A stretch of 616 bases of DNA from Escherichia coli (GTDB taxonomy: Bacteria > Pseudomonadota > Gammaproteobacteria > Enterobacterales > Enterobacteriaceae): the NCBI RefSeq assembly GCF_003334255.1, contig NZ_QOWU01000210.1; one strand, given 5' to 3'. The notes under the pieces are model-generated. The model was not told the origin of the DNA, did no database searches, and saw only the letters and a program-made list of their open reading frames with translations. Positions 1 to 616 of this stretch are shown in pieces (within the stretch, counting starts at the first letter, position 1; the number at the start of each line of letters is the position of its first letter). A program made the translations under genes and the position numbers.

Positions 1-616
1 CCTGAATCAGACGGCCCAATTCATCATATTCCCGGCGCAATTCCAGCCCGTCAGGCCCGGTGGCTGACGTTAACTGGTTGTGGTGGTTATAGTAAAACGC
101 CGATGCCCTGCCATCCGGCGTGGTTATGCGCGTGATGAGGCCCGTCACCACATCCGGGCTGTACTCTGTTGTCCTGCCTGCGGCATCCGTCTGTGCCCTG
201 AGCCTGCCCACGGCGTCAAACTGACTCTGCGTGACGCTGCCGTCCGCGTGTTCCTTTTTCACCACCCGCTTCAGCCCGGCTTCGCCCTGCGTGTGCAGCA
301 CTTCACGGCGGTCCAGGCTGTCGGTGATGGTGATGCGGTCTTTCTCATACTGATACGTGTAGCTTAAGCCTGCCGGGTTTAGCTGTTCTGTCACCCGCCC
401 GTCGCTGTCGTAACGGTAACGGATTTCCGGCCGGCCCGTGTGACGGTGCGCCACCATCCGGCCCCGGTATTTATCATCGTAAGTAAAGCTGCGCACCTGT
501 TTGCCACTACGGTCATACACCACCGCCAGTTCGCCGCGTGGCGTCCAGCCATAGCGCACCAGCGGCGCGGCAGGTAAATTCTCCGGGTATTCCGGGTCGT
601 GCGTCAGCCACACGGC
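1..616 (-). CDS. rhsD: Rhs-family core protein (YD-repeat polymorphic toxin scaffold), internal fragment, partial at both ends; RhsD/E-like rather than RhsA/B/C-like by recollection only
   Basis: Reverse-complement translation (first full codon at 616..614, last at 4..2) gives 205 codons with no stop: AVWLTHDPEYPENLPAAPLVRYGWTPRGELAVVYDRSGKQVRSFTYDDKYRGRMVAHRHTGRPEIRYRYDSDGRVTEQLNPAGLSYTYQYEKDRITITDSLDRREVLHTQGEAGLKRVVKKEHADGSVTQSQFDAVGRLRAQTDAAGRTTEYSPDVVTGLITRITTPDGRASAFYYNHHNQLTSATGPDGLELRREYDELGRLIQ. It contains at least eight YD-repeat-like units (e.g. VYDRSGKQV, RYRYDSDGRV, REYDELGRL), the hallmark of Rhs/YD-repeat proteins. The peptide matches my recollection of enterobacterial (E. coli-type) Rhs core sequence. 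The symbol rhsD is tentative: I cannot run an alignment, so the paralog could equally be another rhs copy. Family-level confidence is high, paralog-level confidence is low. Confidence 0.9.

Follow-up and report, generated by a model that had tools for sequence, protein, structure and literature searches.

The 616-nt stretch of Escherichia coli DNA analysed here (the window) is almost certainly a fragment of an rhs core, encoding nine consecutive YD hairpin units of about 21-22 residues that form part of a toxin-enclosing shell and that arose from old, diverged duplications. The hairpin sheet of this segment is predicted, and its closure into a shell is judged from homologous proteins, not from the 205-aa fragment. 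The repeat is evident in the protein as a regular period, in curated family models and in the predicted fold, and the DNA of the window carries no repeat of unit length.

Identity and Genomic Distribution of the Window

On the minus strand, positions 2-616 of the window constitute a single open reading frame of 205 codons (205 aa), which is free of stop codons and open at both ends. The window is an internal coding piece of an E. coli rhs core gene, the rhsA/rhsB toxin gene: it matches both rhsA and rhsB of E. coli K-12 MG1655 at 100% (nt 877-1492 in both genes) and rhsC of the same strain at 96.1% identity, and its peptide corresponds to RhsA residues 293-497 of 1377 (codons 293-497). Since the window is identical in rhsA and rhsB, its assignment to one locus is impossible. 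Genes annotated as rhsA, rhsB or rhsC in hundreds of complete E. coli genomes show 100% identity to the window, which is contained in 3885 of 5426 E. coli genomes, at a median of 3 places per genome and a maximum of 7. The rhsA and rhsB genes of MG1655 share 99.4% identity across 3689 nt. The whole window sits within this kind of large dispersed genomic repeat (3.7 kb), though it has no internal DNA repeat. A recA-dependent unequal crossover between rhsA and rhsB has been described (PMC2935791), and the homology shared by the rhs copies is the source of the name "rearrangement hot spot".

Antisense and other-frame ORFs were dismissed as artefacts of a GC-rich gene; minus frame 0 is the only one without interruption across the window, and all the homology lies in it. 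The longest of the dismissed ORFs, an antisense ORF of 95 aa on the plus strand (window 80-367, GTG start), had neither homology nor any further evidence in its favour and most likely exists only because the coding strand is GC-rich. Searches of both strands of the window against Rfam at the gathering thresholds gave no match to a structured RNA.

The GC content of the window is 61.2%, rising to 72.7% at third codon positions (GC3), and is high for E. coli, in which the genome average is about 51%. The rhs core has been described as G+C-rich and joined to an A+T-rich C-terminal extension (PMC2935791); together with the high GC measured here, this description suggests a foreign origin of the rhs core.

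Parent Protein and Locus

The window peptide aligned with positions 301-505 of the 1261 positions of the NCBIfam model RHS_core (NF041261; E 2.4e-117). Its score of 393 bits is as expected for one-sixth of the model, and the parent MG1655 protein passes the curated cutoff (2647 bits vs 2000), covering model positions 1-1261. The YD_repeat_2x model (TIGR01643) matched three stretches of the window peptide with 59.7 bits against a cutoff of 15.8, and Pfam RHS_repeat (PF05593) recognised four domains (E 9e-8 to 6e-6) and gave two weak matches in addition. With repeat models above threshold, a period of about 21 residues and a predicted antiparallel hairpin sheet, the peptide belongs to the Rhs/YD-repeat proteins.

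Concerning the parent gene, its layout is that of an Rhs polymorphic toxin, in which the protease motif comes after the repeats and a C-terminal toxin domain is followed by an immunity gene (Table 1). According to Vlazny and Hill (1995), as relayed in PMC3150448, the C-terminal region of RhsA is growth-inhibitory and is neutralised by yibA.

Downstream of rhsA-yibA in MG1655 (locus excerpt L001, 10151-11832), the annotation lists two pseudogene fragments named "RHS repeat-associated core domain". One small gene comes after each of them, namely yibG, which encodes a sel1-repeat protein, and a pseudogene of the Imm57 family. These fragments and their small genes are orphan modules of toxin tip and immunity gene, as reported from rhs loci (PMC2935791, PMC3150448).

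No PAAR domain was matched in RhsA residues 1-1200, the N-terminal region (residues 1-292) carrying only DUF6531, and vgrG was absent within 6 kb of rhsA in MG1655. K-12 RhsA thus has neither of the marks, a PAAR/prePAAR domain or an adjacent vgrG, by which an Rhs effector delivered by a type VI secretion system (T6SS) is recognised, and the locus (L001 5125-9258) gives no indication of how the protein would be exported in K-12. In addition, Pfam and NCBIfam scans of the parent protein revealed no beta-propeller gate, FN-plug, NHL or eukaryotic transmembrane architecture, and what it has in common with Tc toxins and teneurins is the shell fold alone.

Table 1. Coordinates of the linker and hairpin units of the window peptide, of the domains of its parent protein RhsA and of the window in MG1655.
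Feature	Residues	Window position	Strand	Sequence	Predicted strands (AF2)	Description
Linker	1-19	560..616	-	AVWLTHDPEYPENLPAAPL		non-repeat, precedes the first hairpin; lower confidence
Unit 1	20-39	500..559	-	VRYGWTPRGELAVVYDRSGK	20-24, 30-34	degenerate YxW...GxL hairpin
Unit 2	40-64	425..499	-	QVRSFTYDDKYRGRMVAHRHTGRPE	40-46, 54-59	YD hairpin, turn with 2-residue insertion
Unit 3	65-85	362..424	-	IRYRYDSDGRVTEQLNPAGLS	65-69, 75-79	canonical YxYDxxGRV
Unit 4	86-103	308..361	-	YTYQYEKDRITITDSLDR	86-91, 94-99	short, tight 2-residue turn, without glycine
Unit 5	104-127	236..307	-	REVLHTQGEAGLKRVVKKEHADGS	104-110, 117-122	degenerate, without Y or D (LHTQGEAG)
Unit 6	128-148	173..235	-	VTQSQFDAVGRLRAQTDAAGR	128-133, 139-143	canonical FDxxGRL...TDxxGR
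Unit 7	149-170	107..172	-	TTEYSPDVVTGLITRITTPDGR	149-154, 161-165	second aromatic replaced by proline (YSPD)
Unit 8	171-191	44..106	-	ASAFYYNHHNQLTSATGPDGL	171-176, 182-186	YN variant, first turn without glycine
Unit 9	192-205	2..43	-	ELRREYDELGRLIQ	192-194	canonical YDxxGRL, cut by window end
DUF6531	RhsA 46-123					
RHS repeats	RhsA 318-981					
PF03527	RhsA 1143-1179					
TIGR03696 Rhs-associated core	RhsA 1170-1247					
DPIG-x18-DPLG	RhsA 1221-1246	outside window				DPxG-x18-DPxG aspartyl-protease motif
Ntox34 toxin domain (PF15606)	RhsA 1298-1372					E 2e-43
yibA						directly downstream of rhsA in MG1655
Window in MG1655 locus excerpts						L001 6001-6616; L002 1569-2184; L003 1460-2075

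Anatomy of the Hairpin Units

A search of 1.84 billion representative proteins with the window peptide returned 31,486 matches at E <= 0.001, and the trimmed best segments of this search were used for a 32-row alignment, designated A1. From A1 and the strands predicted by AlphaFold2 (AF2), nine hairpin units of 18-25 residues each were delineated, the ninth being cut by the window end. The first strands end at residues 24, 46, 69, 91, 110, 133, 154, 176 and approximately 197, a spacing of 19-23 residues. The first strand ends at the second aromatic of YxYD; a DxxG(R)-type turn leads into the second strand, after which comes a second turn, usually (T)DxxG. Glycine was present in 13 of the 16 predicted loops, which agrees with the published description of Rhs cores as having "G residues, often followed by R" every 9-11 amino acids (PMC2935791).

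The consensus of A1 is itself periodic (...YxYDxxGRLxxxxDxxGxxx...), with invariant or nearly invariant positions at Y46, Y69, Y90, D99, G126, D144, G169, Y176 and Y197. Among these, Y69 in unit 3 and G169 in unit 7 are invariant, and Y46 in unit 2, Y90 and D99 in unit 4, Y176 in unit 8 and Y197 in unit 9 are nearly so. Matches of Pfam RHS_repeat lie at residues 69-100 (unit 3, E 6e-6), 133-171 (unit 6, E 8.9e-8), 158-190 (unit 7) and 176-204 (unit 8), and the repeat-HMM scored 17.5 for unit 3, 13.5 for unit 6 and, at unit 9, 19.0 for RhsA 482-501. The linker before the first hairpin is essentially strandless in the AF2 model (one bridge residue, 2) with a block pLDDT of 73-77, and neither Pfam nor the repeat-HMM matched a YD motif in its residues.

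The YD dipeptide is absent from units 1, 5 and 7. Unit 1, whose loops in the AF2 model are TPRGE and DRSGK, aligns with the canonical YxYDxxGxL...TDxxG pattern in both A1 and hhalign; unit 5, which has a weak Pfam match at 117-139, falls on the pattern YxYDxxxRxVK...DG in A1 and pairs with unit 1 in hhalign. In solved Rhs proteins, the tyrosine of the YD motif points into the cavity, and His, Arg, Trp or Phe often stands in its place (PMC10684867); the substitutions in units 1, 5 and 6 resemble these published replacements. The degenerate units are conserved in orthologs. We consider it unlikely that units 1 (RYGW), 5 and 7 (YSPD) are more than relaxed hairpin copies and constitute a conserved, specific docking surface, for which the partner might be, for example, the N-terminal DUF6531/plug region or a non-T6SS export partner of the K-12 Rhs proteins, at whose locus no PAAR or vgrG was seen.

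An earlier note, made by reading the letters of the window, had listed eight YD-like units at the protein level. All eight quoted peptides were found exactly at the plus-strand coordinates that it gave, in the minus-strand frame, and the periodicity that it suspected stands, at about 21 residues; its count and register, however, had to be revised, since there are nine units, of which two had been missed, and one of the eight was out of phase. The peptide VYDRSGKQV (494..520), which had been taken as a unit of its own, is actually the second, TDxxG-type turn of unit 1 and lies half a period off, which explains the 11-residue spacing in that reading. The degenerate units overlooked at first, VRYGWTPRGEL (window 527-559) and REVLHTQGEAGLKRVV (window 260-307), explain its 45-residue gap. 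The earlier register outscores the homology-based register (4.04 vs 0.78) because it picks the best YD-like strings; the register from homology and structure was preferred, being the one on which A1, hhalign and the AF2 strands converge.

Predicted Fold and Solved Shells

The AF2 prediction based on A1 (mean pLDDT 93.8, pTM 0.76) consists of 17 antiparallel beta-strands, one per 10-11 residues, and contains no helix except a three-residue turn at 113-115. In a Foldseek comparison with the PDB, the top 40 matches were all YD shells of Rhs proteins, Tc-toxin BC components or teneurins. Among the Rhs shells, which gave the best matches, were Tse5 (8cp6_B, E 8.5e-15), Tse15, RhsP and Photorhabdus Rhs1; the model fitted P. 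protegens RhsA (7q97_A) with a TMq of 0.73 and an rmsd of 3.2 A, and S. bongori Rhs (8qjb_A) with a TMq of 0.76 and an rmsd of 2.7 A. Tc-toxin BC components and teneurins, such as teneurin-2 (6fb3_A, TMq 0.66), came next. Unrelated single-layer sheets such as OspA ranked below the YD shells, with TMq < 0.3.

In these shells, the DXXGR motif makes the turn, for which its glycine gives torsional freedom (PMC10684867). The solved Rhs shells enclose a C-terminal toxin that is released autoproteolytically (PMC10684867); the toxin-holding cocoon of P. protegens RhsA is a spiral of 76 antiparallel strands. The N-terminal plug occupies residues 48-124 in Tse5 (PMC10684867) and 268-386 in P. protegens RhsA. 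By sequence alignment, window residues 12-152 correspond to Tse5 (8cp6) 213-353 (E 2.7e-30), and the window corresponds to P. protegens RhsA 432-619. As the aligned stretches of both proteins lie shortly after the plugs, we infer that the segment is the start of the first spiral turn.

In an older view of Rhs proteins and teneurins, the YD repeats would be mainly a cell-surface array binding ligands or carbohydrates, not the wall of a toxin shell. The link of RhsA to group 2 capsule export through KpsD, cited by Jackson et al. (PMC2935791), would be in line with such a role, but we regard it as very improbable for this segment: the close structural and sequence homologs are all closed toxin-enclosing shells, the parent gene has the full toxin layout with the DPxG motif, Ntox34 and a downstream immunity gene, and no lectin-like family was matched in the NCBIfam and Pfam scans of the window peptide. 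A piece of the wall of a toxin shell is therefore the preferred reading of the segment.

Periodicity of the Peptide

In the BLOSUM62 autocorrelation of the 205-aa peptide, lags 21 (z 4.2) and 64 (z 5.4) stand out, accompanied by lesser peaks at 22 and 43, and its maximum was reached by none of 2000 composition-preserving shuffles. For residues 1-1250 of the parent protein RhsA, the top lags were 21 (z 5.4), 62 (z 4.8) and 42 (z 4.0). Nine 13-aa cores placed in a register of about 21.6 residues scored 9.2 standard deviations (z) above shuffles, a value that 0 of 5000 shuffles attained. A register-shift control keeps the period, as all anchors slide together, and is uninformative; the shuffles were relied on instead.

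As a local stand-in for HHrepid, units 1-4 were aligned with units 5-8 by hhalign, and the two halves matched over 80 aligned columns at 16% identity (probability 99.6%, E 7e-24). Since A1 includes segments of giant YD proteins that were picked by best local match, the canonical motif is enriched in it, and this probability is probably inflated. With the 205-residue query, many giant YD-repeat proteins gave matches at 10-38 distinct sites each, which is the behaviour of a repeat.

The units are barely alike (mean identity 11%) and three of them lack the YD dipeptide, which might speak for a chance or compositional effect of a peptide rich in Y, D, G and R; this explanation has a negligible probability in view of the shuffles, the curated repeat models above threshold, the hhalign match between the halves and the predicted strands, which share the same period.

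Absence of DNA Repeats and Age of the Units

Tandem Repeats Finder reported just two trivial arrays of 19-20 nt (scores 31-33), and a direct-repeat search just two imperfect pairs of 17-19 nt, so that neither method found a DNA repeat of unit length in the 616-nt window. The longest exact direct repeat is 9 nt, equal to that of codon-shuffled versions. A faint in-frame excess of nucleotide identity was observed at lags of 63, 66, 129 and 192 nt (z 2.5-3.6), with 38 of 2000 shuffles matching its maximum. This excess is the shadow of the protein repeat, in which codons for Tyr, Asp, Gly and Arg recur.

Between sister units of the window, amino acid identity averages 11% (maximum 29%) vs 6.5% in shuffles, and nucleotide identity 31% vs 27.8% in shuffles. 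When the same unit was compared between RhsA and orthologous Rhs proteins, which are 45-64% identical overall, the identity was 44-64%, and different units compared across Rhs proteins were 11-13% identical. As each unit stays distinct in orthologs at 44-64%, the duplications long predate the divergence of the lineages. These comparisons support the view that the YD units are very old duplications, diverged almost to noise level. Recent tandem duplications of the DNA, with a nucleotide similarity overlooked by eye, could claim the small in-frame excess, yet they have hardly any likelihood left beside the lack of a unit-length repeat, an exact-repeat length at the chance value, an identity between units close to that of shuffles and orthologs that keep every unit distinct.

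Further claims of the earlier note concerned the nature and the history of the repeat, and they are borne out by the data above. Its statement that the DNA holds no matching exact repeats agrees with Tandem Repeats Finder, the direct-repeat search and the exact-repeat length, all at a trivial or chance level. Its description of the units as ancient and diverged is upheld by the contrast between sister units and the same unit in orthologs, and its assignment to beta-hairpins of an Rhs/teneurin-type shell by the RHS models, the AF2 sheet and the Foldseek matches, at the level of a predicted fold. The two checks that it had proposed, for internal periodicity and by structure prediction, gave a period that no shuffle matched, with hhalign agreeing between the halves, and a model of antiparallel hairpins with the YD-shell fold.

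Discussion

Concerning the architecture of the segment, each unit is predicted to be a beta-hairpin in which the first strand ends in (Y/F)x(Y/F)D and passes through a DxxG(R) turn into a second strand of the (R)Lxxxx type, followed by a second turn, usually (T)DxxG. The hairpins would stack side by side into a continuous antiparallel sheet which, as in the solved homologs, would spiral into the hollow Rhs shell, or cocoon. The segment would be situated early in the spiral, directly after the N-terminal plug region, with its aromatics facing the cavity and its glycines permitting tight turns. The shell would enclose the C-terminal toxin, which would be released by the Rhs-associated aspartyl protease motif; in RhsA, this toxin is the Ntox34 domain, counteracted by the downstream gene yibA. 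For E. coli RhsA itself, we infer shell closure, toxin encapsulation and cleavage by homology with the solved shells. The repeat originated in very old duplications that diverged until recurrence was limited to the structural positions (aromatic, D/N, G, R/L), the repeat in the DNA having been lost.

The closest systems are E. coli K-12 RhsA and RhsB (NF041261), which are identical to the window in sequence and show no difference from it. The original description of the rhsA repeat was reportedly given by Feulner et al. in 1990, a paper cited in PMC2935791. As relayed in PMC10684867, YD repeats (YDxxGRL[I/T]) were first defined on E. coli Rhs proteins.

The next closest are the solved Rhs shells of the T6SS, namely P. 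aeruginosa Tse5 (8cp6), P. protegens RhsA (7q97), S. bongori Rhs (8qjb-d), A. baumannii Tse15 (8uy4), RhsP (8h8a) and P. laumondii Rhs1 (7pq5). Common features are the YD-hairpin spiral, a plug formed by the aspartyl protease at the C-terminus and the enclosed C-terminal toxin, the enclosure in E. coli being judged by homology. The window model superposes on them with TMq 0.70-0.76 and rmsd 2.7-3.7 A, at a sequence identity of only 20-28%. The N-termini of the solved shells carry PAAR or are linked to VgrG, and their delivery by the T6SS has been demonstrated, whereas the K-12 rhsA locus has DUF6531 and no PAAR or vgrG was found there. The toxins also differ: RhsA carries Ntox34, Tse5 a pore-former and P. 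protegens RhsA a DNase.

The same YD hairpin shell fold occurs in the BC components of Tc toxins (TcdB2-TccC3, 4o9x; YenB/YenC2, 4igl) and in teneurins (6fb3), which the window model matched in Foldseek with E 1e-5 to 1e-8 and a TMq of 0.65-0.68 for teneurins and about 0.5 for Tc toxins, at 14-19% identity to the window. Tc shells differ in being built from two proteins, with four turns and a beta-propeller gate; teneurins are membrane proteins of eukaryotes that possess FN-plug and NHL domains and whose plug stays uncleaved.

The segment is already known, being a piece of the textbook E. coli Rhs core, for which several homologous shells have been solved. Its value is that of a calibration case, in which a repeat at the protein level without a trace in the DNA was recognised from sequence alone and the structural reading passed every test. 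For the biology of the Rhs family, the segment illustrates that a repeat can be maintained purely by the constraints of the fold, which keep the aromatic, Asp, Gly and Arg/Leu positions in place at an identity of about 11% between units and 44-64% between orthologs.
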